In this document: positions 1 through 54,782 of the stretch, one piece after another | Layout of the letters: each line of letters starts with the position of its first letter | Position numbering within the stretch: position 1 is the first letter of the stretch | Assembly: GCA_016187515.1 (NCBI GenBank) | Contig: JACPJN010000007.1 | Span: 68,046 to 132,045 of the forward strand | Source: Candidatus Uhrbacteria bacterium | GTDB taxonomy: Bacteria; Patescibacteriota; Patescibacteriia; GWA2-47-26 | DNA: 64,000 nucleotides | Reading direction: 5' to 3' | The notes under the pieces: model-generated | What the model was told of the DNA's origin: nothing | Seen by the model: the letters and a program-made list of their open reading frames with translations, nothing else | The model's database searches: none | Program-made: the position numbers and the translations under genes

Positions 1-508
1 TGGTCACAATCAGGCCATCCTTACTCACAACAAATCCGCTCCCGCCGCCGACTTGTTGTTTTTTGGGCGGGCCTGGTGGTTGCTGCGGTGCCGGCTCCTG
101 CGGGATTTCAATCTCAAATCCAAATTGGCGAAACAGATCTTCGGGAAATGGTGAGGTCACACTGCGCTGCGCTACTTCTTTACTAATTACAATAGATACC
201 ACGGCGGGCGAGACCCGCCTGACCACCTCAACTGTAGAATCACTCTCTTGTCCCCCTCCCCTAACCCCTCCCACCAAGGGAGGGGAATTCCCTTTTGCTT
301 CCTCCCCCTTGATGGGGGAGGATTGAGGAGGGGGTGCGGCACGCGGCACGATCCATTGTAACGATGGCGGAAGTGACGCCAGCAACCTCTGCCCGATATT
401 ACCCGCGGCAACCTGGGAGGCCACAATACCGCCGGTTACTCCGGCAACGCTCCCCACCAAAAAACTGATGGTAATCGAGGCCAGAATTGTTTTGCGAAAA
501 TCATTCAT
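1..508 (-). CDS. HtrA/DegP-family trypsin-like serine protease, N-terminal part (gene continues beyond window start)
   Basis: Manual translation from ATG 508-506 gives MNDFRKTILASITISFLVGSVAGV (TM anchor), then VVRRVSPAVVSIVISKE and GGGSGFVVSKDGLIVT, a typical HtrA core. Absent from the ORF track because there is no in-window stop. Carries the in-frame family-1 repeat at 250-336. Confidence 0.6.
   Translation of the reverse strand, partial: MNDFRKTILASITISFLVGSVAGVTGGIVASQVAAGNIGQRLLASLPPSLQWIVPRAAPPPQSSPIKGEEAKGNSPPLVGGVRGGGQESDSTVEVVRRVSPAVVSIVISKEVAQRSVTSPFPEDLFRQFGFEIEIPQEPAPQQPPGPPKKQQVGGGSGFVVSKDGLIVT
250..336. repeat. Family-1 G/C-rich double-hairpin element (CCCCTCCC/GGGAGGGG stems, loops ACCA and TTGAT), in frame inside htrA
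   Basis: cccctccc..aagggagggg and cctccccc ttgat gggggagg hairpins. Same architecture as 2210-2298. Confidence 0.8.
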
Positions 509-1339: not shown

Positions 1340-1463
1340 CCCCTCACCTCGACCTCTCCCCCTCCAGAGGCGGGCAGGCGCGGGGAGAGGTGATGCTAAT
1401 TGATACCTTATTCAACTCCCCTCTCCCTCTGGGAGAGGGTGGCTGGAGGCCGGGTGAGGGTTT
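1340..1463. repeat. Family-1 composite element (outer stem cccctcacc/ggtgaggg enclosing inner hairpins), forms the 3' tail of the DUF559 ORF
   Basis: cctctcccc...ggggagagg and cccctctccc tct gggagaggg. Followed by a TTTTT run. Confidence 0.7.
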
Positions 1464-1790
1464 TTGGAGCATACTTAAAATAGTTTCTATCACCGCTTTA
1501 GTTTCCCTCACCGCAGCATCTGCTCCAAATCGTATCACTCGATATCCTTGACCTTCTAAATATCGCGTGCATGCCGCATCTTTTTCTATTTGCGTCCCGT
1601 GTTGGCTTCCATCAATCTCGATGATCAAAAATTTCTCCTCACAACAAAAGTCGGCAATATATTGCCCTACCGGATGTTGCCGCGGAAATTTATATCCGCC
1701 AAGTCGTCGGTCTCGCAAAAAACTCCACAATTTCCTTTCGCCGTCTGTTTGCCTGTGACGCAGTGTGCGGGCAAGTTTAACATTTGACAT
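1344..1790 (-). CDS. DUF559 (Vsr-like endonuclease fold) domain protein; C-terminal about 40 aa encoded by a repeat element
   Basis: The track ORF 1344..1844 contains RKLWSFLRDRRLGGYKFPRQHPVGQYIADFCCEEKFLIIEIDGSQH and RVIRFGADAA, which are DUF559 motifs. Start moved to ATG 1790 (MSNVKLARTL); GAGGGG from the upstream hairpin serves as the SD. Confidence 0.55.
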   Translation of the reverse strand: MSNVKLARTLRHRQTDGERKLWSFLRDRRLGGYKFPRQHPVGQYIADFCCEEKFLIIEIDGSQHGTQIEKDAACTRYLEGQGYRVIRFGADAAVRETKAVIETILSMLQKPSPGLQPPSPRGRGELNKVSISITSPRACPPLEGERSR

Positions 1791-1793
1791 ATT

Positions 1794-1833
1794 GCCCCTC
1801 ACCCCGTCCTCTCCCGCGGGGAGAGGGGTATTG
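1794..1833. repeat. Family-1 single hairpin (cctctccc gc ggggagagg) immediately upstream of the DUF559 start
   Basis: Seen directly in the sequence. Confidence 0.6.
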
Positions 1834-1840
1834 TTAAAAA

Positions 1841-2488
1841 TCAAAAATCCACCCCCTTCTGCGCCAGCACTCCTTTGTCATACGGGTGTTTTACTTTTTC
1901 CATTTTGGTTACCAGATCAGCCATTTCCGCAAGCTCGGGATATTCATTGTGTCCGGTCATCAGTAGATGCACCTCCGGCGGCTTGGCGCGGATTAAATCT
2001 TTTATATCATCCACGCTCAAAAGCATACTATCCACGGCCGACAATATCTCATCCAAAATCACCACTTGGAATTTGTTATTTGTAATTTGTGATTTCGCGA
2101 AGGCCAGGCCTTCGCGCGCGGCTTGCTCGTGATCCTCGATCGGCTTGGCATCCCCAAGGATGCGTACCCACCCTTTGCCGACGATGTGGTATTCCAAGTG
2201 TGCACCATCTTCCCCTCCCCTAACCCCTCCCACAAGGGGAGGGGGATTTTTAATTACTCCCTCTCCCTTGATGGGAGAGGGTTGGGGTGAGGGTGAGGAC
2301 TGCTCCAACCATCTAAACATCCTCCCCTCTCCGGTCTCCCACCCCGCCTCGGCCCCGCCTTTCATAAATTGCATAAACAACACGCGCTTCCCCTGTCCCA
2401 GCGCGCGCAAAGCCAGCCCAATCGCGGCTGTGCTTTTCCCTTTGCCATAACCCCAATAAATCATGACCAAACCTTGTTCCATATTCAC
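1841..2488 (-). CDS. cobA: Cob(I)yrinic acid a,c-diamide / corrinoid adenosyltransferase (CobA/BtuR/CobO family) with an in-frame repeat-encoded insertion of about 30 aa
   Basis: Contains GYGKGKSTAAIGLALRALGQGKRVLFMQFMKGG ... HLLMTGHNEYPELAEMADLVTKMEKVKHPYDKGVLAQKGVDF. The insertion SSPSPQPSPIKGEGVIKNPPPLVGGVRGGEDGAH is encoded by the repeat at 2210-2298. Confidence 0.75.
   Translation of the reverse strand: MNMEQGLVMIYWGYGKGKSTAAIGLALRALGQGKRVLFMQFMKGGAEAGWETGEGRMFRWLEQSSPSPQPSPIKGEGVIKNPPPLVGGVRGGEDGAHLEYHIVGKGWVRILGDAKPIEDHEQAAREGLAFAKSQITNNKFQVVILDEILSAVDSMLLSVDDIKDLIRAKPPEVHLLMTGHNEYPELAEMADLVTKMEKVKHPYDKGVLAQKGVDF
2210..2298. repeat. Family-1 double-hairpin element, in frame inside cobA
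   Basis: cccctccc acaa ggggagggg and ccctctccc ttgat gggagaggg. Encodes a peptide nearly identical to the htrA copy (SPIKGE..PPLVGGVRGG). Confidence 0.85.
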
Positions 2489-8924: not shown

Positions 8925-9401
8925 TTAGGTTAATTCTTCGAGCACTTTCGCTTCTATCTTCTCCATCTTCCTCGCCTCTTTCTCTTGAACATGATCATAC
9001 TCCAGGAGGTGCAGGAAGCCATGCAAGGCCAGTCGAGCAATTTCGTAGTTCATGGTCCACCCGCACTTTTTTGCCTCGCGCTTTGCTTCCGGAAGGGAAA
9101 TAAAAATATCACCCAAGTCAACTGAAGAACGTAGGGACTTATGAACTAAAGAACTCGATTGTTCTTTCGTTCTTTTATTCTTTCGTTCTTTTGTTGTTCC
9201 AAACGCCAGCACATTCGTCGTCCTATCTTTCCCGCGATACTGACTGTTGAACGCGCGCATTTTTTCATCACCGACAAAACTGACTGATACGGCTGTACCG
9301 CTAGGATATTTTACATTCTTCGCGGCGTGCTCAATAATTTTTTTTACCACGCCGTCATATTTTTTTGCAGATGACAGTTCGTATCGAACAACAATTTCCA
9401 T
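8925..9401 (-). CDS. ybeY: rRNA maturation endoribonuclease YbeY
   Basis: HGFLHLLEYDH metal-binding motif. Contains a low-complexity insertion of about 30 aa. Confidence 0.85.
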   Translation of the reverse strand: MEIVVRYELSSAKKYDGVVKKIIEHAAKNVKYPSGTAVSVSFVGDEKMRAFNSQYRGKDRTTNVLAFGTTKERKNKRTKEQSSSLVHKSLRSSVDLGDIFISLPEAKREAKKCGWTMNYEIARLALHGFLHLLEYDHVQEKEARKMEKIEAKVLEELT

Positions 9402-11343: not shown

Positions 11344-11373
11344 TTGACACCAGGCCGAAAATAACCTATGCTA
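11344..11373 (+). promoter_or_regulatory. Sigma70-like promoter (TTGACA-17-TATGCT) for the lipoprotein gene
   Basis: cttgaca ccaggccgaaaataacc tatgct. Confidence 0.4.
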
Positions 11374-11403
11374 AAAGTGGCTCTACCAACAAAGGAGGAA
11401 GCC

Positions 11404-13821: not shown

Positions 13822-16800
13822 TTAATCTAAGGCCGCCCCCTCCTCGACTAGCACTCCACCGGAAAGAGTGGAGATGTTGCACTGATTGTCACAATAGGTA
13901 CAGCCCACTAAACCATAGCCCGGCGTACACCGAGTCCCATTGGAAGTTCCTTCATCACATTCCTCTGGATCAGTACACCGGCCACGACCGCAATCCTGGT
14001 CGCGCCGACAGGTCACGCCGTCACGATTACGATCGCCAGTGCCCACACACACCAGTCCCTGATTGAATCCGTCGCCACATTTTGCGTGCTTGCAGTCGTT
14101 AATGCAGCCATCCGCATTTTCCGCCGCATCGTTTTGCCCGTCGTTCGTGGTTCCATCGTCACACTGCTCATTTCCTTCGCGCGCGCCATTGCCGCATTGT
14201 CCTTGGGCAACTGTAGTGAGACCGCCCCAACGACATGGACCACCACTACGGCAGGCCTGCCGCCAGAGATACGGGTAGCCCTCGGGCTCTGTAAACTGTT
14301 GACTGTCATAAACATGCGTTCCATCCCACTGGATTGGCCCAGTAAATTTACAGCTACCAAATGACGTATCGCAATCAGAATCTTGGCGGCAGGGCTTTCC
14401 AAAATCCGAAGCCCCCCACACCCACATACACACCTGTGGACTCTGGCGAGTATCTCCCGCTTCGCACTGCTCATTCCACTCTTCCTGTATCTCATTGTCT
14501 CCGCACCGCGCCCCTGGCCCGGAGCAGTCAAACCGACAACACCCATAATCGCCATTGACACATGCTGCACCGCTGGAATTTGTAGAATCACATACTTCGG
14601 GTCCATTGCGCGTACCGTCGCCGCAATAGGCACTAAGTGCGGTTGCTGAACATTGACCCCACGGGAAACAATTATTATCCTCGGTGCAGATATTTCCCTG
14701 ATTAGGCCCCCCGATGCAGGTCCTAGCGCATACCGTATTGCACTTGCCATACTGACCATTTAACAGCCCATCATCACATACTTCGCTTCCTTCTCTTATG
14801 CCATTACCGCAGATTACGCCGCCTTGGCATATGTCAAGGTTGGATGTCGGGTTTTGGGATCCACCCCATATTTGCCAGTCAGTCACCTGCGGAGCATCAT
14901 TCCACTCGCACCTATTCGTGCACGCCCGTACTGCCTGGCACTGCGATGAAAGAATACAAACCCCTTCATTGTCAGCGCAGTTTTCATCATTAACACACTC
15001 CTTCGAAGGATTCAAACTGCATGAACGCAACGGAACACATGAAGAACCTCTCGCATGCAACGTACAGGTTGAACCAGAATCTGGGAACCTTGGGGCTGTT
15101 GATATTACCCCGGTTTCTGGATTACACCTTTGCCGAAATCCCCCCTCAAAGGGGGCACCAGGGTCACCACAGTATCCAAACCAACGGGCTTGCTGGACCT
15201 CTTCCTGCCCCACTTCGCAGAATTCCTGGCAATTATTCACCCCGCACGAAACCCCGGGATAATTTGCGCAGGTTCCGTCCGGGAGACATTCACCACGTTC
15301 AAGAATTCCATTGCCGCAGGTCGCCGTGGCATTGGACCATAATCCCCCGGCTGGCGCGCCCGGCGCGCTCACCCAGGAACAATTGCTCGGGGTTAGCAGG
15401 TTGGTTCCCGCCGGATCAAAATTAAACACTTCCCAGCGGCTCTGCCCGGGAGCTGGCGGACGATACAGCAGTTCAAAATCTACGCCCAATTCATAGTCCA
15501 CTGCCCCAATCGCGCGATACTGATACACGTGGGATCCAGCCGGACAGCGGTAGGTTTGGGTCTGTTCATTCCAGCAAGTCGCGGGATCAAATTGCCCGCG
15601 CTCGCCTGGAATCGCGGCACAGCCCGGCGCGAAGCTATTGAGCGGATCTTGCGGCAAGGAGGCGCCCAATGTTGCGCCAAGCGTGGCCTGCCAAGAAGGC
15701 CATTTGGAGGTGGACATGGAACGGATAAAAGTGCCGGCCTGAAGCGGCGGATAGCGTCCGTGAGTATTGCGGTAATCCTCCAGTGCGGATTGTATCGAAC
15801 TGATATGATTTAAACGCAATAGATCTCGGCGCAGCTTGTCTCGGTTGGAGTTCTCGACATTCACATTAAGCTGGAAGTTGGAAACAAACTGGTCAAACAC
15901 TTGCTGCATCGCGCTGGGCGCGTTTTCAGAAAGCGAAAGCACGTAGATATTGCTGTACACTACTTTTAATGTGGGGACGTACCTATCAGTAACCGCGTTT
16001 GTGCCAGCGACATACACCGTATTCCGGTCCCGGATCGCCTCATAACCATCCACCCCGGGATTAATTGGCGCCGGAGTTCCAGTAAAGCCCATTTGCTCAT
16101 ACCAAGTTCTGACCGGCAAACGCCTCGGGTTTGGAAATACCCGAATTCCAATGGCCTGCTGTTTTTCTGCTGATTCAACCAAAAGATACTCCTTCAGCGG
16201 AGCAGGGCCAGTATGGCTGGTGGCGATACGGAAGGTGTCCAAAGTAACCGGCGCACCCTCGTCCGCGCCTGCCGCGGGAGGACGAATCGCGCCCGGGTAA
16301 ATTAAAGCCGGCAAATCGCCTGCGAGGCCCTCCTCACCACTGTCGCGGCAGTACCAAGTGCGAAAATTCATGGGGTCTCCTCCGCCAAGGAGTGCGCCTT
16401 CGCGATCCTCAAACCGCGGCAAGGGGTGCTCAATACGCGATGGCCAGGGATTTTCGCACAGCGTGGTAATAAATTCCGCGCTCCCCTCGCGCACCGCGTC
16501 CTGATGATCCTCCGGCTGCGGAAGCGCGCTGGCGTCAGTAATTGTGGCAGTGGCATTCACGTCCGTCTCGCCATTGCGATTCCCGGCAGTTACGGTTTGA
16601 TCTGGATCAGCGTTGATCGGATCCGCAGCGTTGATGGGATCCGGCTCATTGGTAACGCTGGCCACGGTATTTTCCGCTGATCTCCAGGACCAGGCCCAGG
16701 AATATCCGGTTGTCCGCTGCAGCGCCTGCCCGCTGCTGGAGAGCGCCTCGGCCCGAACTTGGGCCTGCTGCCCGGGACGAGAAAAACCCGCGCCGCCTTC

Positions 16801-19800
16801 TCCTTCAAAAATGCTCACCGCTTCATCCGCGCCAGTTACGTTAACGCGCACGTTTTCCACGGTACAGATCTCGGATCCGGTAGTGAAGTTCCAACTTGAA
16901 TCTGTTCCGCCTTCGGCAGCGGGACCGCGGAAGGCCACGCCGAAAATCGAGCGCACTCCAGAAGCGATCAAATCATTAAGGTTCGGGTCGCCAGCAATGG
17001 TGATCTGATAATCTGTCGCGTTATCCAAAATCCGCGAAGGTTGCAGGACTAAACGACTCCCCTGTGCTGCCGATTCAACCGACGCCTTTAAGCTCAAGGA
17101 CGGATCAGCGCACCACACCGAATTTCTTGCCCGGCCCTGAAGAGTCAGGCCATCCGGACACGTCGCAGTGTTTTCAACACGCTTGGCAATTCCGATCGCT
17201 TGATCAAGATTTGCGGAATCCATGGGTTGATCAAAAGTTACTTCCAAAAGTCCATTGGGACAGGCGTCTGGCGTATTGATGCCCGGCACGCGCTCCACAA
17301 TTTTCGGGCGAAGATAACAACAGTTGTCGCTCCCGCGGCCCACGGCCTCGGATGGCCCTTGTCCGGGCGTTGGACAATCGGCTTCGCTGCGGGCCACGCA
17401 AAATACGGTAATACTGGCGCTGCCCGGCGCGCCCGCTTGTCCCTCCACCGCCGCCTCTACCGCCACCGTACTCCAAGGATTAGGCGGAGCGCAGACCGGA
17501 AAATTCTCATCCGTACAATTGCCATTGCTGCTACAGGGCGCGCGCGGTTCCTTAAATTCTCCGGTCTCTTTGCGGCAGAACTTCCGAATCCCCAAGGCCC
17601 TGGCTTGCTGAATTGGATCAATGCGCCGAGGCGACTCCGCAACCGTCCCTTCATTAAGACAGCGCGCGGAACAGCCGTCTCCGGCAGCCGTATTGCCATC
17701 ATCACAGTCCTCAAAACGATCAATCCTCCCATTGCCGCAAAACGGCGAAGGAGTTCCTTCATTAAGACACCGGGATGAACAGCCATCGCCATTGGCGCGA
17801 TTATTTAACTGATCGCATTCTTCACCGGCCTCCACTAATCCGTTGCCGCAGGTGGAAACCGGAAGAGTGCCTTTTAAAAGACACGTGGCTGGGTCGCAGA
17901 ATTCCGAAAGAAGGGGGGCACCTAAAAGGTCGCGGTAACGCTGCTGGTCTTCGGGATCACATTCTTCCCCGCGATCAATCTGCCCGTTTCCGCAAGTAGT
18001 CGCCCGAGAAGTCCCTTCATTCCGACACTGCGTAGAGCAGCCATCGCCCGGTAAAACATTGCCGTCGTCGCAATCCTCGCCATTTCCGGGTTCCGGGTCT
18101 CCGCCACTGCCGCAGCAATTGGTTTGCTCCGGAGCGACACAGCGCGCCAGCGCTCCGGCGTGCAGACAACTCGCGGTGCACCCGGGCAAGCCGGGCGGGT
18201 CGCATTCCTCGCCCGGATCAATAATACCATTCCCGCAGGCGAATCTTCCGAGAATTCCCGCGCTGGATCCCTCGTTTAAACACTGCGCTAAACAGCCATC
18301 GCCATCTATTAAATTTCCGTCATCGCAATCTTCCGCGTATTCCCGCACCCCATTGCCGCAGGAAGGCAAACGATCCACTCCGGTCCGCACTACTCCGGCA
18401 ATCATGGTATTGCCCACCACGCCGGCGACCCGATCATCTTCTTCAAGTTCCGGATCGTCAATCTTCCAACCCCAATCGTAGGACAGCGAATTTAAGCGCT
18501 GGCCCTGCGGATCGCAGGCATCCGGAGCGCTCCGCGGCTCCGCGGAAAAACTCGCGCGCGCGCCGATAAGATAGAGCGCGGCTTGCGGAGGGCTTAATTC
18601 CACGCGATCAACCTGACAGGATGACGCGCCGGTTTTAAAGGTCCAAGAAAAAGTATTGCACTGCGCGCCCGCGCACTTCCCTGGCCCGGGAGCGAGCATC
18701 GCTCCGGTTATCGCGTCACGGCCGGCCCAATTGTAGGAAAAGTTCAGTCCGGCCAGCGGCTTGCCCGGTACGGAGCTGTCGCGGCGGCTTGAATGTAGGC
18801 CAGCGCTGCCGCCTTTGAGTAAAACCCGATAAAAAGTATTGGGCAGTAAGAGATCTTCTCGCGCCGAGGTGGCCGGGTTATCGGTAAGTCCGATCTCCAG
18901 GGTATTTTCTGCGCTCTTCCAAGAAAGTGCGGGGCTCAAAACTCGCTCCGCCAAGCGGCCGGGTTTAAGACAGCGGACGGTGCAGAGCGGATCACGCTCG
19001 CCCCCATCGCAACCGATATCTTCGCCATTGTCCAGCACGCCATTGCCGCAAAGCGCGGGTTCGGATCCCTCGTTTAAGCACTGCGGTAAGCAGCCATCGC
19101 CGGAAAGGCGATTGCCATCATCACAATCTTCCGCGTACTCGCGCAAACCATTGCCGCATTGCGCGAAACGCGTTCCTTCATTAAGACAATTGGGGGAGCA
19201 GCCATCGCCCGCGTTGGTATTGCCGTCATCGCAATCCTCCGCTTCCGAGGCAAGGATCCCATCGCCGCAAGCCGGTACTGACCCGGCGGCAATTGAACCT
19301 TCATTAACACATACTTCGGAACAGCCGTCTCCGGGCCGCAGATTGCCGTCATCGCAGTCCTCGCCCAGTTCAATGCGGCCATTGCCGCAGCCCTGACCTC
19401 CGGCGGAAGAGGGACGACGCGTGCCGGTCCACTGACAAATACTGGTGCAGAGATTGCGCTTGGCCGGGGTGTTTAAAAGCGGCGAATTAGGGTCGCACTC
19501 CTCGCCCGGATCAATCTGGCCATTGCCGCAAAGCAGCGGACTTACCGGATTGCCCCGCCTTAAACAGTCCTGCGGATCGCACCACGACGCAAATTCGTGA
19601 TCAAAATTCACTTCACATTCCTCGCCCGCTTCCAAACGGCTATTGCCGCAAACCGCGAAGTTCGAACTGGTCCCCTCGCGAAGGCATTGCGCGGAACAGC
19701 CATCTCCGGCTTGTCGATTCCGATCATTATCACACTCCTCACCCGGATTAATTTTACCGTTTCCACACAGCGCGGGTCCGGTTCCCTCGTTTAAACACTG

Positions 19801-22800
19801 CGACGAACAGCCATCGCCGTTTTCCAGGTTGCCATCATCACAATCTTCTCCGCGGTCAAGACAGCGGCCGCCTTGGCAGCTCTCTCCTGGCCCGCACTCG
19901 GAAGCATTGCGGCACGCCCGTCCGTCTCCGCAGCGCAGAGAAAAGTTTGATCCCTCATTAAGACAAACTGCGGAACAGCCGTCTCCGGAAGTCGTGTTGC
20001 CATCATCACACTCTTCTCCCGTCTCCACGCTGCCATTGCCGCAAGGCACGGCCCAGAGTAACGCGTTTTGAACATTGGTCACGCTTTGGGGATGCAAAGT
20101 GTTTGAGGAGGTAAACATGGCCACATTAAACCGCGCGGCAATCTTGGCGTTGGTACAGGCCTCTCCGCAAGCCGGCCACCATTGTATTACTTGCGGGTCC
20201 ATAAATGAAATCTTGAGCTTCCCAAAACCGGTGGTCCGTGGGGGCTGCGGCGGAGTATGCGCGCGGACTCTGATCTCTTCGCCTTGGGTGTCTTCCAAGG
20301 CAATTACGGTTACGGTCCAGGGCATGTGCTTACAATACCCTCCAACACAGGCCTCGGTCACGCAAGTATTGGGCTGACCGCCGCAGTCGGCATCTACCTG
20401 GCACGGCGCGTCGTAATTGTTGGAACAATGGCTGTACCCGATCGCGCACTCCGCGTCTTCACTACAGGCCTTGCCGATCGCCGGGGAAATTCCGCTGGAA
20501 TTATAAGTAACCGCCGCGCGCTCCGGATTCTCCGTATCATAGACATCCCAGGCCCACGAATAGTCGTCCGACGACGGCACTACGCAAGGATCGTCAAGCG
20601 CCACGGGAATTGCTAAATAATCAATCGGCTCATTTTCCGTAGTGGCCTCATAAGGGCTGGGCACCACCGCGATCCCGCCGACTTGACAAAGATTATTGTC
20701 CGGATTGGACTCGTTTTTGGTTTGAAACGCAAAACAGTACGCGGCGCGCGCGTCTCCGCAGCGGGATAAGCCGTCTGGAAGCGGGATCATGGGCTGGCCT
20801 TGAAGAGCGCCGCGATCTTGCGCGGTAATTCCTCCGGTCCCGCCCAAAAGTACCACGCGATACCAGGAACCGGCTGAAAAATTATCCGACAGCCAGAAAC
20901 TAAATCCTAATCCGCCGGAATACGGCCCAAATTTACGGCCGAGCGCCTGATCTTCAACTTGGCTGCAGGCCTCCCCTTCAATCTGGACATCATCAACATA
21001 AACCGCGAAGTCCTCTCCGGAACTCGCCTCCTCGCCAACCTCATAAGGATCGCCTTCCAAAAATACGCGCACATAGCCGGGAGCATTGCCATTAGGACTG
21101 GCATCAAAGGTCATGGTTACCGACACCGGCTGCCACTCATTGGTGAGCGTAATTTCGGACCGAACTTTTTGCCAAAAACCACGGGTGGCCAGACAGGTCC
21201 TTTGTCCGGCATTGGTTTGGCTCGCGCACCCGGTGTCCGCAGTACAAGCCACTCCGCCGGATATTCCGCCGCAACGCATTCCGTCAGCGCCGCCCGCGCG
21301 TTGAATTAAAATTCCGGCGCGCTTCCCCGCCCCCGCGGCATCAACCGCTTTCATCCACGCGGTTGCCGTATATATTTTCCCGCTGGTATCGGCAATGGCA
21401 TTGGCTTGGTACCCAAACCAATGCTCATAATTTTGTTGCAGTCCGCGAGTATCTCTCCATCCTGGGCCGGTGTCGTTGTCCAGCTTGGTAAGGGCGAGCG
21501 CAAAATTGCCCGGATCCGCACTAGAAGCGCCGCGCCCAGCGCCTAGCACGGTTTCCACCCCCAACAAATCCTCGTGGCGAAGGTTTGTCGGCGGATCCAG
21601 CGTGGGCTCTGGCGGGCGGCCCCACACGGCAGTATCCGCGGTGAAATTCGGACTTCCAAAAGTGGTGTCCGCGCCATTCAACAGTTCGGTCGGCGCCGTG
21701 CACTTTTGGAGCTTAATCGTCTGCGAATTTAAGGTCGCCGGATCAACCCGGGCGTCCGGATTAAAACTCACTGCCACGGCCGCGTTAACGCATACTCCGG
21801 TATTTGATCCTCTTCCGGATTCGACAGCCGGCGACGGCGAAGGCGGATATTGCGGAAAACCTTCCGCGTCGGCTGCTTTATCGCATCCTTCAAACACCGT
21901 CGGGGTAAGCGGGGCCTGGGAGGTGGTAAACTGCCAAGCAAACGCGGACTCCCCGGGCTGCGCGCCAGCGCAGTCCGCCCTACAAGTTCCGTCTCCACAG
22001 CAAGTCAGACCTCCGAGCGCGGCGCAATCCAAGCGCGCTTCATCAGGGGCCGGCAACCGGCAATCACCAACCAAAAACGTCCGCAAATTCGAAGCGCGCG
22101 TGATCTGGCCTCCTCCAGCTTGCGGAAAATCATTTTGTATAATTACCTCTCCGGCTGGAGTCCCAGCCACGGTGTTTCCGGGCACTTGCGCGCATACTTC
22201 TTGCGCGTCCCAGCCACCGCGCGGACAAGCATCCAAACGGATACCTCCGACATTGGTGAGCGTGGCCGGTAAAGTCGGCGCCCAGGACTGATCCGCGGAA
22301 CTCCTGCGCGCCGTAAATAGCGCCCCGCGGCCGGAAGCCGGCGCGGATCCAAACCGATCTCCAAAAATGCTGACATTGGTAAACGTTGGGCCGGAGGCCG
22401 GCTCAATACAAGCTAAAAATGGCGCGGCTGACTCTTGATCTAAAACATCAAAATCCTTGGGACTGGACTGCTGACGATCATAACGCTGCACATAAAGGTA
22501 GGCGCCATCATCAAAAAGAAGATCGGAGGCGCTGCCATCTTCATCCGCGTCGTGGATATCCAAAATGCGCGGCACTTTAACCGTGATCTGTATTGGACTC
22601 CACCAACTGCTCCCGCATTGCGAAGGAAAGTCCACGTTTCCCTGCACTCCTCGCCCATCGGAAGTAACAAACCAAACCATTCCGGGGGTATCGCCGAAAT
22701 TCCGTCCGGAAATGGTGCACCCGGCCCCTGGCCCGCCGCGCGCCGGATTATCTTCCGGCGCGCCCGCGCAAACTACCGTCGTAATAATTGGCAAAGTGCC

Positions 22801-24813
22801 GGCATCCGGAGAAAGCACGGTAAAGGGAAGGGCGTTGGAGGGAACTTTTTCGGTGTTTTCAACTTGCACCTGGGTTGGGCCAAATGCCAGCGCCGGCACG
22901 CGGCTTAAAATGGCAGTCGCGGACCAGGCGTCCACGGCGCCCGGCTGTCCGCCAAACCGCGCTTGCGCCCGCAGAATCTGCTTGCCCAGGCGGCGGGTCT
23001 GCTCGCCAAACTGCACACCGGTAATATTCACTGGCGCATTCCAAAGCCCGGCGATTGGATTCACGCTGCAAATCCCGGGGTGCTCCACCTCGTTTACTTC
23101 AAATAAACCGGTCGGAGTTGACGATCCGCGCGGCGGGGGATGAACCGGAACGATCGGGCCCCGCGAGTCATTGCTGGTGTCGCGGCACAGATTATCATTG
23201 TCCGCACACCCATCAGCGACCACCGTAACCGGCCCGACCTGCGCGCCCTCCGGAAGACCGACTAAAATATAATTATCAGACCAGGTCGTGTTACCCGCGC
23301 AGGCCTCCGGAGCTTGAGCGCGGACTCCGTTATGGAAAAATGCCGCGCCCGGGGTCTGGCCAAAATTTAATCCGGCGACCGTCACGAGTGTCCCGGCTTT
23401 ACCGTCTCCCGGAGAAATGCCGGTAATCGTCAAGGGCGTAGTGCACTCTTTATCTCCATCACCATCTAGATCCGTGCAAACCCCGCCGGAACATTGGATA
23501 TTATCCGTACAACTGCTGCCGTCGCACAATCCGCAGCCGGAGGGGCCGTCTGCCGCGCTATCGCAATTCGGCCCATCTTCATCATCATCTTGAAGCGGGA
23601 ACCCTAACTGGTCGCGATTAAAGCAGTGACTGGGACGGACGATCACCCGCACCGGAGCAGACCATACCGCGTTATCATCAATATCAAAAGCGCGCGCGCG
23701 CAACTGATGCTGGGCCGGAGCCGGCGGATTCGCCGGAAAACATGGTAAGGTTAAAATAATTTCCAGCGGATAAGTGCCTTCCGGCGGAGTAAGCAGGCCG
23801 TCTAGAAGTGCCGTCCCATCCGCATAGATTTCCACGTGCTCCACTCCCCCATCATCTTTGACTCTGACCTGAACCGGCACGCAAGTGTCCACTTCCACTG
23901 CCGCGCCGTCATCCGGCGACTCAATAGTTACTTCCGGCGGCGCCACATCAATAATACTTCCCGAACGAAACTCTACCCGACAAGTTGGCGCAAATCCGCC
24001 GCAAAGCAAATCCCGGCCATCAAAGCGTTTGACGCCGTCCGCCCCGTCTCGGATCTGCACCACAAATTCAGTATCCGCGTCAAAACAGCGCCGATCTTGA
24101 TTCGGTTCCGGACACGCCGCGGATGGGCGCAATTCTACGATATTGCCAACCACGGCCGCCGGCTCCAAGGCAACCGCTGCGCCGCTGTCTTTGCGCGTAA
24201 GGTTCAGATTTCCGGCCAGGGTCTCCGGGTCGGGCGCGCCGCTAAAAAATACCCGTACCACAATGTTGCGAATCGGCACCGCTCCGGAAGGGGCAATGCG
24301 CCGCACGATAAACGCGTCGGACGGTAAAAACGGGCAATCCGGTCCGGGACAGCGAACATCCGCGGGAATCGTGAGCGGCCCTCCGGCCGCTAACTGTAAA
24401 CGATTCAATACGAATTGGACAATTCCAAACGCCGAAAGAATAATCGCGAGTCCAATCACGGAATTAACCAGCACTTTTTTGGCCTTGTCAATTTGCTCTT
24501 CATTGCCGGCCGAAGTCAGCCATAAAAAACCGCCGTAAAGAATCAAGGCCACGGCCACCAGACCGAGAAAACCCAGCGCCACGCGAATGATGCGCGCCAC
24601 AATCACTCGCGGATCAGCCGTGGGCAAAATCAGTCCGGCTTGCCCGGGAACCGCCGCGATCTCTGCGCCGGTTTGAATCTGGGAAGGCAGCGGCACGCCT
24701 TGAGCCAGCGCCGTCGGAATGGAGAATGCAGAATGAAGAATGAAGAATAAGAAAATCACTACAAACCAGCGAAATATCCATCGGCAATGTTCAATCCGGC
24801 ATTCTAAATTCAT
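13822..24813 (-). CDS. Giant (3663 aa) secreted or surface protein: N-terminal T4SS-pilin-like (VirB2/TrbC-like, two TM helices) domain, Ig-like domains, about 20 Myxococcus-type cysteine-rich repeats, and an internal type IV pilin/GspG-like globular segment
   Basis: Uninterrupted 10,992-nt ORF. N-terminus is signal peptide, then LGFLGLVAVALILYGGFLWLTSAGNEEQIDKAKKVL, then IGLAIILSAFGIV. Contains CGNGxxExGEECDDGNxxxGDGCS repeats and SIQSALEDYRNTHGRYP. Confidence 0.9.
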   Translation of the reverse strand: MNLECRIEHCRWIFRWFVVIFLFFILHSAFSIPTALAQGVPLPSQIQTGAEIAAVPGQAGLILPTADPRVIVARIIRVALGFLGLVAVALILYGGFLWLTSAGNEEQIDKAKKVLVNSVIGLAIILSAFGIVQFVLNRLQLAAGGPLTIPADVRCPGPDCPFLPSDAFIVRRIAPSGAVPIRNIVVRVFFSGAPDPETLAGNLNLTRKDSGAAVALEPAAVVGNIVELRPSAACPEPNQDRRCFDADTEFVVQIRDGADGVKRFDGRDLLCGGFAPTCRVEFRSGSIIDVAPPEVTIESPDDGAAVEVDTCVPVQVRVKDDGGVEHVEIYADGTALLDGLLTPPEGTYPLEIILTLPCFPANPPAPAQHQLRARAFDIDDNAVWSAPVRVIVRPSHCFNRDQLGFPLQDDDEDGPNCDSAADGPSGCGLCDGSSCTDNIQCSGGVCTDLDGDGDKECTTPLTITGISPGDGKAGTLVTVAGLNFGQTPGAAFFHNGVRAQAPEACAGNTTWSDNYILVGLPEGAQVGPVTVVADGCADNDNLCRDTSNDSRGPIVPVHPPPRGSSTPTGLFEVNEVEHPGICSVNPIAGLWNAPVNITGVQFGEQTRRLGKQILRAQARFGGQPGAVDAWSATAILSRVPALAFGPTQVQVENTEKVPSNALPFTVLSPDAGTLPIITTVVCAGAPEDNPARGGPGAGCTISGRNFGDTPGMVWFVTSDGRGVQGNVDFPSQCGSSWWSPIQITVKVPRILDIHDADEDGSASDLLFDDGAYLYVQRYDRQQSSPKDFDVLDQESAAPFLACIEPASGPTFTNVSIFGDRFGSAPASGRGALFTARRSSADQSWAPTLPATLTNVGGIRLDACPRGGWDAQEVCAQVPGNTVAGTPAGEVIIQNDFPQAGGGQITRASNLRTFLVGDCRLPAPDEARLDCAALGGLTCCGDGTCRADCAGAQPGESAFAWQFTTSQAPLTPTVFEGCDKAADAEGFPQYPPSPSPAVESGRGSNTGVCVNAAVAVSFNPDARVDPATLNSQTIKLQKCTAPTELLNGADTTFGSPNFTADTAVWGRPPEPTLDPPTNLRHEDLLGVETVLGAGRGASSADPGNFALALTKLDNDTGPGWRDTRGLQQNYEHWFGYQANAIADTSGKIYTATAWMKAVDAAGAGKRAGILIQRAGGADGMRCGGISGGVACTADTGCASQTNAGQRTCLATRGFWQKVRSEITLTNEWQPVSVTMTFDASPNGNAPGYVRVFLEGDPYEVGEEASSGEDFAVYVDDVQIEGEACSQVEDQALGRKFGPYSGGLGFSFWLSDNFSAGSWYRVVLLGGTGGITAQDRGALQGQPMIPLPDGLSRCGDARAAYCFAFQTKNESNPDNNLCQVGGIAVVPSPYEATTENEPIDYLAIPVALDDPCVVPSSDDYSWAWDVYDTENPERAAVTYNSSGISPAIGKACSEDAECAIGYSHCSNNYDAPCQVDADCGGQPNTCVTEACVGGYCKHMPWTVTVIALEDTQGEEIRVRAHTPPQPPRTTGFGKLKISFMDPQVIQWWPACGEACTNAKIAARFNVAMFTSSNTLHPQSVTNVQNALLWAVPCGNGSVETGEECDDGNTTSGDGCSAVCLNEGSNFSLRCGDGRACRNASECGPGESCQGGRCLDRGEDCDDGNLENGDGCSSQCLNEGTGPALCGNGKINPGEECDNDRNRQAGDGCSAQCLREGTSSNFAVCGNSRLEAGEECEVNFDHEFASWCDPQDCLRRGNPVSPLLCGNGQIDPGEECDPNSPLLNTPAKRNLCTSICQWTGTRRPSSAGGQGCGNGRIELGEDCDDGNLRPGDGCSEVCVNEGSIAAGSVPACGDGILASEAEDCDDGNTNAGDGCSPNCLNEGTRFAQCGNGLREYAEDCDDGNRLSGDGCLPQCLNEGSEPALCGNGVLDNGEDIGCDGGERDPLCTVRCLKPGRLAERVLSPALSWKSAENTLEIGLTDNPATSAREDLLLPNTFYRVLLKGGSAGLHSSRRDSSVPGKPLAGLNFSYNWAGRDAITGAMLAPGPGKCAGAQCNTFSWTFKTGASSCQVDRVELSPPQAALYLIGARASFSAEPRSAPDACDPQGQRLNSLSYDWGWKIDDPELEEDDRVAGVVGNTMIAGVVRTGVDRLPSCGNGVREYAEDCDDGNLIDGDGCLAQCLNEGSSAGILGRFACGNGIIDPGEECDPPGLPGCTASCLHAGALARCVAPEQTNCCGSGGDPEPGNGEDCDDGNVLPGDGCSTQCRNEGTSRATTCGNGQIDRGEECDPEDQQRYRDLLGAPLLSEFCDPATCLLKGTLPVSTCGNGLVEAGEECDQLNNRANGDGCSSRCLNEGTPSPFCGNGRIDRFEDCDDGNTAAGDGCSARCLNEGTVAESPRRIDPIQQARALGIRKFCRKETGEFKEPRAPCSSNGNCTDENFPVCAPPNPWSTVAVEAAVEGQAGAPGSASITVFCVARSEADCPTPGQGPSEAVGRGSDNCCYLRPKIVERVPGINTPDACPNGLLEVTFDQPMDSANLDQAIGIAKRVENTATCPDGLTLQGRARNSVWCADPSLSLKASVESAAQGSRLVLQPSRILDNATDYQITIAGDPNLNDLIASGVRSIFGVAFRGPAAEGGTDSSWNFTTGSEICTVENVRVNVTGADEAVSIFEGEGGAGFSRPGQQAQVRAEALSSSGQALQRTTGYSWAWSWRSAENTVASVTNEPDPINAADPINADPDQTVTAGNRNGETDVNATATITDASALPQPEDHQDAVREGSAEFITTLCENPWPSRIEHPLPRFEDREGALLGGGDPMNFRTWYCRDSGEEGLAGDLPALIYPGAIRPPAAGADEGAPVTLDTFRIATSHTGPAPLKEYLLVESAEKQQAIGIRVFPNPRRLPVRTWYEQMGFTGTPAPINPGVDGYEAIRDRNTVYVAGTNAVTDRYVPTLKVVYSNIYVLSLSENAPSAMQQVFDQFVSNFQLNVNVENSNRDKLRRDLLRLNHISSIQSALEDYRNTHGRYPPLQAGTFIRSMSTSKWPSWQATLGATLGASLPQDPLNSFAPGCAAIPGERGQFDPATCWNEQTQTYRCPAGSHVYQYRAIGAVDYELGVDFELLYRPPAPGQSRWEVFNFDPAGTNLLTPSNCSWVSAPGAPAGGLWSNATATCGNGILERGECLPDGTCANYPGVSCGVNNCQEFCEVGQEEVQQARWFGYCGDPGAPFEGGFRQRCNPETGVISTAPRFPDSGSTCTLHARGSSCVPLRSCSLNPSKECVNDENCADNEGVCILSSQCQAVRACTNRCEWNDAPQVTDWQIWGGSQNPTSNLDICQGGVICGNGIREGSEVCDDGLLNGQYGKCNTVCARTCIGGPNQGNICTEDNNCFPWGQCSATALSAYCGDGTRNGPEVCDSTNSSGAACVNGDYGCCRFDCSGPGARCGDNEIQEEWNEQCEAGDTRQSPQVCMWVWGASDFGKPCRQDSDCDTSFGSCKFTGPIQWDGTHVYDSQQFTEPEGYPYLWRQACRSGGPCRWGGLTTVAQGQCGNGAREGNEQCDDGTTNDGQNDAAENADGCINDCKHAKCGDGFNQGLVCVGTGDRNRDGVTCRRDQDCGRGRCTDPEECDEGTSNGTRCTPGYGLVGCTYCDNQCNISTLSGGVLVEEGAALD

Positions 24814-38646: not shown

Positions 38647-39504
38647 TTATGTTACCACCTCCGCCCCGCGCTTGCGCACAATCACCGTATGCTCAAAATG
38701 CGCCGAGGGTTTGCCATCGGCCGTTACGATGGTCCAGCCGTCGGGTTGCACATTGACGCGCCAGGTTCCTAAATTTACCATCGGCTCAATCGCAATCACC
38801 ATTCCCTCTTGCAGTATGCAATCCGGAAATCCTTCCACCCAAAAATTCGGGATCTCTGGCGGTTCGTGCACGCGGTAGCCCACGCCGTGTCCGACGAGTT
38901 CGCGCACAATCCCAAACCCAAATTTCTCCACATACTTTTCAATGGCTTTGGAAATATGGCTAACGCGATGACCGGCGCGCACTTGTTTGATGCCAATCTT
39001 TAACGCGCGCCCGGTTACTTTGATCAGTTCACGCACCTTGCGATCCACGCGGCCGACCATGACTGTGCGTGCCGTATCAGTATAGAGACCCCTCCTAACC
39101 TCCCCTTGTAAAGGGGAGGAAATTGTTTCATTTCTCCCCCTCTCGGAGGGGGAGTGAGAGGGGGTCCGTAGAACCGGCCACCGCATGCCGATGTCTATTT
39201 TCACAAGATCTCCATCCTTAATTACCCGCGACGGCACCGCCGGCGCGTGCACTACTTCCTGATTTAGGCACGCGCAAATCGTCGTGGTAAACGGCGGATG
39301 ATCCGGCCGCGGCGCGTAGCCCTTAAACGCCGGCTCTCCGCCGGCCTCCCGAATCATCCGCTCCGCCGCCACATCAAGTTCTTCGGTCGTTACTCCCGGC
39401 TTTACCATTTTACAAAGTCGCTCCAAAATCTTCGCCAAGCGCTTTCCGCCTTGGCGAATCAACTCCAGCTCCTTGGGGTTCTTTATAGTTGCTCCGCGTT
39501 CCAT
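38647..39504 (-). CDS. map: Type I methionine aminopeptidase with an in-frame repeat-encoded insertion of about 32 aa
   Basis: VVHAPAVPSRVIKDGDLVKIDIGM [insertion] GLYTDTARTVMVG ... HGVGYRVHEPPEIPNF ... IEPMV. Confidence 0.9.
   Translation of the reverse strand: MERGATIKNPKELELIRQGGKRLAKILERLCKMVKPGVTTEELDVAAERMIREAGGEPAFKGYAPRPDHPPFTTTICACLNQEVVHAPAVPSRVIKDGDLVKIDIGMRWPVLRTPSHSPSERGRNETISSPLQGEVRRGLYTDTARTVMVGRVDRKVRELIKVTGRALKIGIKQVRAGHRVSHISKAIEKYVEKFGFGIVRELVGHGVGYRVHEPPEIPNFWVEGFPDCILQEGMVIAIEPMVNLGTWRVNVQPDGWTIVTADGKPSAHFEHTVIVRKRGAEVVT
39085..39168. repeat. Family-1 element (cctcccctt gtaa aaggggagg / ctccccctc tc gagggggag), in frame inside map
   Basis: Seen in the sequence. Confidence 0.85.
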
Positions 39505-39642: not shown

Positions 39643-39999
39643 TTAGGCCTGGAGCATGCGCTCCAGGTCCGCGACTGCCTGGCGAATCCGCGCGTCTTTC
39701 TGAATCCGCGCCTTAGTTTTACGGCAAGCCGTAATCACGGTCGAGTGATTCATGCCGCCAAAACGCCGGCCAATCTCCGGATAGCTCAAGTCGCACAGTT
39801 GACGCATCAGATACATCGCGATCTGGCGCGGGACGCTAATTGCGCGATGCCGCTTTGGTCCGCGCAGGTCCGCGACCGTGACGTGAAAGTAGTTGGCCAC
39901 GGTCCGCTGTACAGTTGGAGCATCCAGCGCCTCTTGACGCTGACGCGGGAAAGTGTAGCCGGGATTAAGCCCCGACCAGGTTCTACTGGCTGATTCCAT
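39643..39999 (-). CDS. Stand-alone DnaA domain IV-like (C-terminal HTH DNA-binding domain) protein
   Basis: VANYFHVTVADLRGPKRHRAISVPRQIAMYLMRQLCDLSYPEIGRRFGGMNHSTVITACRK. Has RBS GAGGAGG and a TTGACA promoter upstream. Confidence 0.65.
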   Translation of the reverse strand: MESASRTWSGLNPGYTFPRQRQEALDAPTVQRTVANYFHVTVADLRGPKRHRAISVPRQIAMYLMRQLCDLSYPEIGRRFGGMNHSTVITACRKTKARIQKDARIRQAVADLERMLQA

Positions 40000-40791: not shown

Positions 40792-40796
40792 AGTGA

Positions 40797-40874
40797 TTGA
40801 GTTATTAAGTTAAGGGTTATTAAGTTATTGAAATCACTACTTAATAACTTACTAACTCAATAACCTAATAACTC
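40797..40874. repeat. Family-3 palindromic word-repeat
   Basis: gattgagttattaagttaagggttattaagttattg ... cttaataacttactaactcaataacctaataact. Confidence 0.8.
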
Positions 40875-49203: not shown

Positions 49204-49297
49204 GTAGTTATTAGGTTATGAGTTATTGGGTTATTAAGTTATTCGTATTGATTTCGACGCATTTAATAACCTAATAACTTAATAACTATTAACTCTT
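49204..49297. repeat. Family-3 palindromic word-repeat
   Basis: gtagttattaggttatgagttattgggttattaagttattcgtattgatttcgacgcatttaataacctaataacttaataact. Confidence 0.8.
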
Positions 49298-50050: not shown

Positions 50051-50128
50051 GGTAAATCAAGTAAATCAGGCGAGGCAAGTGAATCAAGCGCTTGATTTAC
50101 CTGATTTACTTGCTTCACTTGATTTACC
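50051..50128. repeat. Family-2 palindromic word-repeat
   Basis: ggtaaatcaagtaaatcaggcgaggcaagtgaatcaagcgcttgatttacctgatttacttgcttcacttgatttac. Confidence 0.8.
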
Positions 50129-53434: not shown

Positions 53435-53497
53435 TTAGTTATTGAGTTATTAAGTTATTATTTACTCAATAACCCAATAACTCATAACTTAATAACT
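53435..53497. repeat. Family-3 palindromic word-repeat
   Basis: ttagttattgagttattaagttattatttactcaataacccaataactcataacttaataact. Confidence 0.8.
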
Positions 53498-54690
53498 CAC
53501 TTTATAATTTTCGTCACCACCCCGGCGCCCACGGTTTTACCGCCCTCACGGATCGCAAACCGCTGCTTCTCTTCCAGCGCCACCGGGGAGATAAGTTTGA
53601 TTTTAAGCGCTACCGTATCGCCCGGCATGACCATTTCCACTCCGGCCGGAAGCTCCGTAATGTCTCCGGTGACGTCCGTAGTGCGAATGTAGAACTGCGG
53701 CTTGTATCCTTTGAAGAACGGCTTATGCCTTCCGCCTTCTTCTTTGGTCAAACAATACACTTCCGCCTCGACTTCCGTATGCGGGGTAATCGAACCCGGC
53801 TTGGCGAGCACCATCCCGCGCTCCACTTCTTCTTTTTTGGTGCCGCGCAGCAAGATTCCGGCATTGTCCCCGGCGCGCCCTTCGTCCAATTGTTTGTTAA
53901 ACATCTCAATACCGGTTACGACGGTCTTGCGCGTGTCTCCCAAACCCACAATCTCGATTTCCTCGTTGATCTTAACCTGGCCGCGTTCAATACGGCCGGT
54001 TACGACCGTACCGCGGCCTTCAATGGAAAAGATATCCTCAATCGGCATCAGGAAGGGCTTGGCGACATCGCGCACCGGTTCAGGAATATATTCATCCAGG
54101 ATTTTGACCAACTCCAAAAGCGGTTTAGCGGACTCTTCATCCTTGGGATTCTGCAGGGCTTTGAGCGCTGAACCGCGAATAATCGGGGTGGTGTCCCCGG
54201 GAAAATCGTATTTTTTAAGCAGTTCGCGAACCTCTTCTTCCACCAGATCAATCAGCTCCTTATCTTCCACTTGATCAACTTTATTCAAAAATACCACAAT
54301 AAAAGGCACGCCGACTTGACGGGCCAGCAAAATGTGTTCGCGGGTTTGCGGCATCGGGCCGTCGGCGGCGGAAACCACCAAAATCGCGCCATCCATCTGG
54401 GCCGCGCCGGTAATCATGTTTTTTACATAATCCGCGTGCCCGGGACAGTCCACGTGAGCGTAGTGGCGCTTGTCCGATTCATACTCCACATGAGCAGTGG
54501 CAATCGTAATTCCGCGCGCCTTTTCTTCCGGCGCGTTATCAATTTGATCCACTGATTTATCCTGCGCTTTCATGCCATGCGCGCGCAGCACGTTTAAAAG
54601 CGACGCCGTCAAAGTCGTCTTGCCATGGTCAACGTGGCCAATGGTGCCCACGTTAATATGTGGTTTAGTGCGCTCAAATTTCTCGGCCAT
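53497..54690 (-). CDS. tuf: Elongation factor Tu
   Basis: [29 protein letters not shown]. Confidence 0.97.
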
Positions 54691-54698
54691 ACTTTTTT

Positions 54699-54782
54699 AG
54701 TGAGTGATTGAGTTATTAAGTTATTGAGTTATTAAGGCATGAAAAACCTAATAACCTAATAACTCAATAACTTAATAACTAC
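54699..54782. repeat. Family-3 palindromic word-repeat
   Basis: agtgagtgattgagttattaagttattgagttattaaggcatgaaaaacctaataacctaataactcaataacttaataact. Confidence 0.8.

Follow-up and report, generated by a model that had tools for sequence, protein, structure and literature searches.

Palindromic DNA that colonises housekeeping genes in frame is best known from Rickettsia. The Rickettsia palindromic elements (RPEs), the closest known kind to the repeat described here, are dispersed palindromic repeats found in frame in unrelated, often essential genes, where the added peptide is compatible with the fold of the host protein (PMC10969869). Here we describe a 64,000-nucleotide stretch of DNA from a Candidatus Uhrbacteria bacterium (contig JACPJN010000007.1, positions 68,046 to 132,045; hereafter the window), in which an 80-nt double-hairpin repeat, termed family 1, is read through in frame within map, the gene for type I methionine aminopeptidase (MetAP). 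Colonisation of this kind also occurs, then, in the Candidate Phyla Radiation (CPR), and it reaches a universally conserved protein-maturation enzyme. We consider it probable, from sequence comparison, that a selfish hairpin repeat has settled in a permissive surface loop, where it is translated as a disordered loop and leaves the enzyme functional.

Two further described systems bear on this repeat. Repetitive extragenic palindromic (REP) sequences are extragenic by definition. They are short hairpin modules with conserved GTAG/CGTC heads, often arranged as inverted doublets (REP doublets forming hairpins, REPINs), and their partner is an HUH Y1 transposase, the REP-associated tyrosine transposase (RAYT), whose single-copy gene lies between two inverted modules. 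[quoted passage not shown]

An in-frame double hairpin in the map gene

The map gene lies at 38647..39504 on the minus strand (open reading frame (ORF) list, phmmer and AlphaFold2 (AF2)) and encodes a protein of 285 aa, insert included, which is 100% identical to NCBI MBI2552312.1 (Candidatus Uhrbacteria, on a 318-kb contig). The ORF is full-length and uninterrupted and stands in a ribosomal-protein/secY/adk/map region where the secY-adk-map order is the same as in relatives. In a phmmer search against the PDB its product matched T. maritima MetAP 1o0x (E = 5e-56), in an alignment that breaks at query residue 107 and restarts at 134, leaving about 27-28 residues unmatched. The metal ligands D104, D143, H206, E240 and E271 and the substrate-pocket H86 are invariant among 118 homologues; this five-ligand set (Asp, Asp, His, Glu, Glu) with its pocket His, together with the pita-bread fold recovered by AF2 and Foldseek, is that of an M24A type I MetAP. 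D104 (E. coli D97 equivalent) is the first metal-binding Asp, located in KIDIG and encoded according to the codon table at 39193..39195 on the minus strand, and D143 (E. coli D108 equivalent) is the second, in YTDT, encoded at 39076..39078 on the same strand.

At the corresponding site the insert-free relative P0008/L001 (84% identity) reads through as ATGCGG TAT AAG GGG TTG TAC ACG GAT, so that the window gene carries a net gain of 84 nt. Delimited by its folds and by the insert-free site in L001, the element spans 39087..39166 on the minus strand and corresponds to residues ~113-140, a net addition of 28 codons. About 26 residues (T114-G139) are encoded by the element itself, the end of which supplies the codon (GGT) of the conserved G139; RWP belongs to the native loop and is common to many insert-free homologues. 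The original prediction that a family-1 element is inserted in frame in MetAP is borne out by the intact ORF, the added codons and the dispersal of the family described below. The 84-bp interval that it assigned to the double hairpin, 39085..39168, coincides exactly with the 28 codons R113..L140, but the peptide of 32 aa attributed to it would need 96 nt, and where that peptide was written with two glycines the actual sequence (...EVRRGLYTD) has one.

The ends of the element are formed by a C-rich left terminal inverted repeat, GACCCCTC (39087..39094), which according to the folds and the family alignment pairs with 39158-39166, and by a G-rich right terminal inverted repeat, GAGGGGGTC (39158..39166; folds, codon table). 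Between them stand hairpin 1, CCTCCCCTT-GTA-AAGGGGAGG (39099..39119; hairpin scan and covariation over 6 copies), and hairpin 2, CTCCCCCTC-TCG-GAGGGGGAG (39134..39154; hairpin scan), each with a perfect 9-bp stem and separated in the map copy by a 14-nt spacer. The predicted fold is a three-way junction in which an outer stem made by the two ends surrounds both hairpins; its folding energy is -46.6 kcal/mol (z -3.0) when computed for RNA and -23.4 kcal/mol (z -3.4) for DNA. No Rfam family matched, the best hit being a chance-level miRNA (E = 0.56) that scored 20 bits where the gathering score is 72. An intein, an intron or a translational bypass could be ruled out, the element being too small, in frame and free of stop codons, and so could an assembly artefact, as inserts are present at the same site in independent assemblies.

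AF2 modelling with the 118-homologue alignment yielded a predicted local distance difference test (pLDDT) of 94.2 and a predicted TM-score (pTM) of 0.91, with strands at residues 100-109 and 140-149 and a drop in pLDDT to ~50-74 confined to the insert segment. Foldseek superposed this model on 1o0x with a root-mean-square deviation of 1.6 Å (E = 5e-28; TM-score normalised to the target, 0.95). Modelling, originally proposed as a check on the insertion, returned a confident core in which the insert segment alone is poorly predicted. D104 and D143 stand on either side of the insert, which is modelled as an excursion from the tip of the β-hairpin that carries them: near these Asp ligands in sequence, it is placed at the far end of the hairpin. 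The earlier statement that the element adjoins the metal-binding DIG motif and a catalytic segment consequently holds along the sequence and fails in space, where the site is a permissive hairpin tip.

Between map and its relatives the proportion of non-synonymous differences (pN) was 0.10-0.18 against a saturated synonymous proportion (pS) of 0.60-0.77, and dN/dS was 0.078 when the window was compared with the insert-bearing L003 and 0.10 when it was compared with the insert-free L001. Selection on map is strongly purifying. A structural precedent is found in S. pneumoniae MetAP1a (4KM3), an active and Met-specific enzyme (PMC3790777), which aligns through the insert region as a single continuous stretch and has a 27-aa insert of its own in the same Asp-Asp hairpin loop, with 37 residues from Asp to Asp against 38 in the window. 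Although similar in size, the streptococcal insert differs from that of the window in being conserved, ordered and lineage-wide, with its own sequence motif, and it is not a dispersed DNA repeat. Tolerance of the insertion in MetAP is supported by all comparative evidence, and it is most likely that the enzyme continues to function, with the insert as an additional floppy loop. The insertion had originally been called notable if tolerated, and the catalytic residues, the purifying selection, the confident core and the operon position all support that it is.

A dispersed family of hairpin modules

Family 1 was detected only by a composition and structure scan, because its stems covary between copies; searches with the two map hairpins, exact or with 3 mismatches, returned the map copy only (chance expectation for the exact pattern, 0). 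Perfect hairpins with a pyrimidine arm and a purine arm number 13 in the window, against 0-1 per shuffle (20 shuffles; ~0.1 expected), and they make up about eight element sites in 64 kb. Full double-hairpin copies number four, all in frame in minus-strand genes. Besides the map copy, one of 84 nt (252..335, minus strand; six-frame translation) lies in an open frame that resembles the N-terminal part of an HtrA-like protease and runs off the window start; Pfam recognised no domain in this fragment itself, and its syntenic genes in L014 and L017 encode Trypsin-PDZ proteases, also with hairpins. Another 84-nt copy (2211..2294, minus strand) lies, likewise in frame, within the gene at 1841..2488 for an adenosyltransferase of CobA/CobO/BtuR type, where it splits the PF02572 match into two stretches. 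A further 84-nt copy (36256..36339, minus strand) is in frame in recO (35887..36708), encodes NPPQPSLTLREGAANNPPLKIRGGAGGV and likewise splits the Pfam RecO_C match in two; the RecO of L020, which is without the insert, shows a 22-aa gap. The hairpin scan also found an intergenic copy with its halves reversed at 29264..29345: a hairpin followed by the G-rich end, then 11 nt, then the C-rich end followed by a hairpin. In-frame modules were also found in related genomes and metagenomes, within genes for YbeY, CobA, HtrA, pyruvate kinase, the ExoVII large subunit and MnmE.

Over six copies hairpin 1 is 96.3% paired, with six of its nine pairs changed on both sides, and its covariation score of 0.689 compares with 0.367 in shuffles (reached by none of 500) and with at most 0.35 in slid controls. 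The covariation test was limited to hairpin 1 because MAFFT gave hairpin 2 an inconsistent register between copies.

Being multi-copy, dispersed and palindromic, and lying in frame in unrelated conserved genes that have insert-free orthologues (MetAP, RecO), the family resembles RPEs. However, RPEs measure ~100-150 bp and belong to AT-rich Alphaproteobacteria, whereas the Uhrbacteria elements measure ~45-85 bp, are GC-rich and belong to Patescibacteria; they further differ in their homopyrimidine/homopurine hairpins, their short terminal inverted repeats and their Pro/Ser/Gly/Arg/Glu-rich peptides. On these comparisons the family would be an analogue of RPEs and not a homologue, set apart by size, base composition and host. 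With the REP/REPIN-RAYT system it has in common a short module made of a conserved head and a hairpin, frequently paired as inverted doublets, and a single-copy nuclease gene between two inverted modules, a DUF559 gene here occupying the place of RAYT. Unlike REPs, it is often intragenic, its head is CCCCTC(A)CC and not GTAG/CGTC, and its candidate partner has a PD-(D/E)xK Vsr-like fold; neither the window nor the related loci examined showed a RAYT-like gene.

The small size (80-84 nt), the terminal inverted repeats GACCCCTC...GAGGGGGTC, the strong secondary structure and the in-frame fusion to a gene recall MITEs. Unlike MITEs, the elements show no target-site duplication: direct repeats were absent around each of the four copies in the window and at the MetAP junctions of L002, L003 and L004, and the junctions examined had no target motif in common. 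No related transposase-bearing insertion sequence was found in the window, where a rough ORF map revealed no obvious transposase and a Pfam scan covered ten ORFs. Nor was a parent insertion sequence recognised: the sole gene with matching ends is that of DUF559, and the order of its ends (hairpin-G-rich...C-rich-hairpin) is the reverse of that in the doublet. A literature search, incomplete in coverage, found nothing relevant on such elements in CPR, Patescibacteria or Uhrbacteria. For annotation, this means that where Patescibacteria proteins vary in length or contain low-complexity segments, the cause can be a repeat insertion and need not be a functional domain specific to the lineage.

A second repeat family was noticed in metagenome loci L023-L047 (for example L036 53-261, L031 and L046). 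It has an identical hairpin, CCTCCCCTTACAAAGGGGAGGAAATTG, and a different head, CTCTACCCCACC, and its members are often closely spaced or in tandem in metagenomic contigs.

Recurrent inserts at the Asp-Asp loop and their explanation

The spacing between the two Asp ligands was surveyed in 118 Patescibacteria MetAPs of 45-84% identity, where it ranges from 10 to 46 residues. A spacing of 10 residues was found in 20 of them, of 13 in 27 and of 14 in nine, and in the other 62 it is at least 15 and reaches 46. Along the MetAP tree the different insert states lie scattered, and the nearest relative of the window is insert-free. Within the close Uhrbacteria group, P0008, P0010, P0012, P0015 and P0017 carry no insert; the window, P0009/L002, P0006 and L004 carry family-1 elements; P0002/L003 carries a DUF559-type variant; P0003, P0005/L020 and P0011 carry an AT-richer CGAATT palindrome; and the remaining sequences have other inserts. 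The inserts of L020, L011 and L003 represent different repeat families, each with more copies in its own locus of ~20 kb. Since the inserts belong to separate dispersed families, at least four unrelated repeat families must have entered the MetAP loop independently. Together with the streptococcal insert, they mark the tip of the Asp-Asp β-hairpin as among the most permissive sites of MetAP, which can help in protein engineering and in the interpretation of MetAP alignments. The drama of an insertion near a catalytic site is softened accordingly, because a loop that accommodates the S. pneumoniae insert and is extended in more than half of the 118 proteins is clearly permissive.

In L020 the MetAP loop contains the CGAATT-rich palindrome as a segment of ~90 nt (9290-9385, -34 kcal/mol), and a second copy of 86 nt with 89.5% identity occupies the intergenic ScpA/UPF0102 spacer (18692-18777).

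The window and L002 copies of family 1 are ~80% identical despite saturated synonymous sites in the flanking gene, and hairpin 2 of L002, CCCCTCCTC-TCG-GAGGAGGGG, shows compensatory swaps relative to that of the window. This identity and these swaps fit either separate insertions from related master copies or constraint on the hairpins, and passive drift of one ancient insertion does not fit the two copies.

Under the explanation that we favour, the 80-nt sequence would be one copy of a selfish REP/MITE-like family dispersed in this Uhrbacteria genome and its relatives, each copy being built of a C-rich end, then one or two hairpins whose 5' arm is homopyrimidine and whose 3' arm is homopurine, then a G-rich end. 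A copy would have inserted into map at the tip of the β-hairpin whose strands carry D104 and D143. As the genetic code implies, arms made only of C and T or only of A and G contain no TAA, TAG or TGA in any frame, so that copies with a net length that is a multiple of three should be read through. The product would be a normal type I MetAP with a Pro/Ser/Gly/Arg/Glu-rich loop of ~28 residues, probably disordered, at a permissive surface, and the insertion would be neutral or mildly costly rather than functional. The element would persist, and surviving copies would mark permissive loops, because compact, gene-dense genomes offer few harmless landing sites. We infer all three of the following: the activity of the protein, the disorder of its loop and the way in which the element moves.

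Several observations weigh against this explanation. Throughout the L002 and L004 loci, perfect family hairpins occur nowhere but in MetAP, a pattern that fits neutral random insertion less well than it does a preferred target, retention since ancient times or selection favouring a long loop. The dN/dS values are averages over long branches, which a very recent inactivation could escape. Finally, neither a target-site duplication nor a transposase that might account for mobility was detected.

Among the alternatives, the one that survives best is that the loop is functional, repeats having been co-opted repeatedly to lengthen the MetAP hairpin, for instance for docking to the ribosome or a partner, and retained by selection. 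The 62 lengthened loops, 49 of them with a spacing of at least 20 residues, would be expected on this account, as would the MetAP copies of L002 and L004 being the sole perfect family hairpins of their loci; moreover, the S. pneumoniae insert overlaps the territory of the N-terminal extensions of type Ib/Ic enzymes and of the type II insert, features for which a role in mediating interactions has been suggested (PMC3790777). We nevertheless regard a functional loop as unlikely. The inserts are unrelated between lineages, drawn as they are from four or more repeat families, they are low-complexity and poorly predicted (pLDDT 50-74), and the same elements are found in many unrelated proteins, while the closest relatives of the window (P0008, P0010 and P0012, 83-84% identity) keep the minimal 10-residue loop.

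A role at the nucleic-acid level within the operon, for instance in stabilising mRNA, providing an RNase site or signalling a pause, with coding read-through incidental to it, appears very improbable. The fold is very stable (-46.6 kcal/mol as RNA) and its hairpins are maintained by compensatory change, and REP elements can influence the stability of mRNA (PMC3733652). However, the same elements occupy arbitrary internal positions of unrelated genes as well as intergenic DNA, close relatives do without them and Rfam holds no matching family, and conservation of the hairpins is equally expected if a mobility machinery recognises them.

That the map copy is inactivated or decaying while another map gene elsewhere does the work, a possibility suggested by an insert that falls between two Asp ligands and already raised with the original prediction, is scarcely credible given an intact ORF with invariant catalytic residues, a dN/dS of ~0.08-0.10, a canonical secY-adk-map position kept as in relatives, inserts at the same site in many independent lineages and the finding of no second map within the 64-kb window. 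Patescibacteria genomes are small and their housekeeping genes usually single-copy, which also counts against a second gene.

DUF559 genes and other features of the window

A DUF559 (Vsr-like) endonuclease gene, the candidate partner nuclease, is located at 1344..1844 on the minus strand (Pfam PF04480, E = 2.6e-36). It is bracketed by hairpins at 1419-1439 and 1808-1826, with CCCTCACC/GGTGAGGG at 1796 and 1453, and along the coding strand the hairpin at 1808-1826 is followed by GGTGAGGG, then by ATG ... domain end, then by CCCTCACC and the hairpin at 1419-1439. The general DUF559 unit can be written as hairpin, GGGTGAGGGG, ORF, CCCCTCACCC, hairpin, the two modules being inverted, and a G-rich box 4-6 nt before the ATG resembles a ribosome-binding site. 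Bracketed DUF559 genes were also found at L014 9917-10507 and, in Uhrbacteria, at L017 9954-10450, with the same order in L018 and L019. Outside this group they occur at L015 2961-3385 (Edaphosphingomonas, 68% GC), where the only two such hairpins in 6.4 kb both flank the DUF559 ORF, and at L022 1443-1900 (65% GC), which has the same GGGTGAGGGG and CCCCTCACCC decamers. Bracketed units are thus present in Uhrbacteria and in two high-GC proteobacterial loci; a cyanobacterial DUF559 gene (L021) is flanked by a different repeat.

Many DUF559 proteins have C-terminal tails like PSPxPLPKGEG (PSPxPLPxGEG) that are translated hairpins, in a sample that the tail of the query itself biases. The MetAP insert of L003 has a right half almost identical to the repeat that lies upstream of the DUF559 gene in L017, and the intergenic window copy at 29264-29345 has the order of a DUF559 unit without the ORF. 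The Vsr/DUF559 clade also includes a homing endonuclease (PMC3424549). No paper linking DUF559 to repeats was found in a literature search of incomplete coverage.

The bracketing of DUF559 genes by the same modules suggests that a nuclease of this family may move the element. We put forward, as a possible though on balance doubtful extension drawn by analogy, that the MetAP insert represents a non-autonomous element within a partnership of nuclease and repeat not recognised before, in which inverted copies of one module, a CCCTCTCCCC hairpin with GGGTGAGGGG or CCCCTCACCC, bracket DUF559 genes in Patescibacteria and Proteobacteria, and these genes maintain or spread the modules as RAYT does REP/REPIN. 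In Uhrbacteria such a partnership might have led to a large-scale invasion of coding sequence, because the homopyrimidine/homopurine arms are stop-free in all six frames. The link between the repeat and DUF559 provides a concrete, testable hypothesis for a widespread domain of unknown function. Together with the recurrent use of the loop it is the part of this work most worth following up, and DUF559 may matter more than the insertion itself.

Between adk and map the window contains a 118-aa ORF (39643-39999, minus strand) with the DnaA C-terminal helix-turn-helix domain only (PF08299, E = 8.9e-29); in the relatives L001 and L020 the adk-map gap holds other small ORFs or none. Two further, AT-richer palindromic families occupy spacers between ribosomal-protein and translation genes, one of AGTTATT-like units and the other of GTAAATCAAGT-like units, with sites at 49206-49294, 53437-53499, 54711-54780 and 40792-40857 and at 33139-33207, 50051-50128 and 60371-60457; some of these palindromes add to what appears to be the N-terminus of an ORF, for example S19, S12 and SecY. 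Near-identical, terminator-like palindrome pairs were seen at 43873-43914/52200-52241 and 27353-27388/28093-28128, with the sequences GGATGGCCRACGGATCACGGATCCGTGATCTTGTGGCTATCC and ACAAAATAAGGTCCGG/CCGGACCTTATTTTGT. Two large ORFs adjoin each other in the window, one of 3663 aa at 13822-24813 on the minus strand and one of 786 aa with long Gly-Glu repeats at 11368-13728 on the plus strand.

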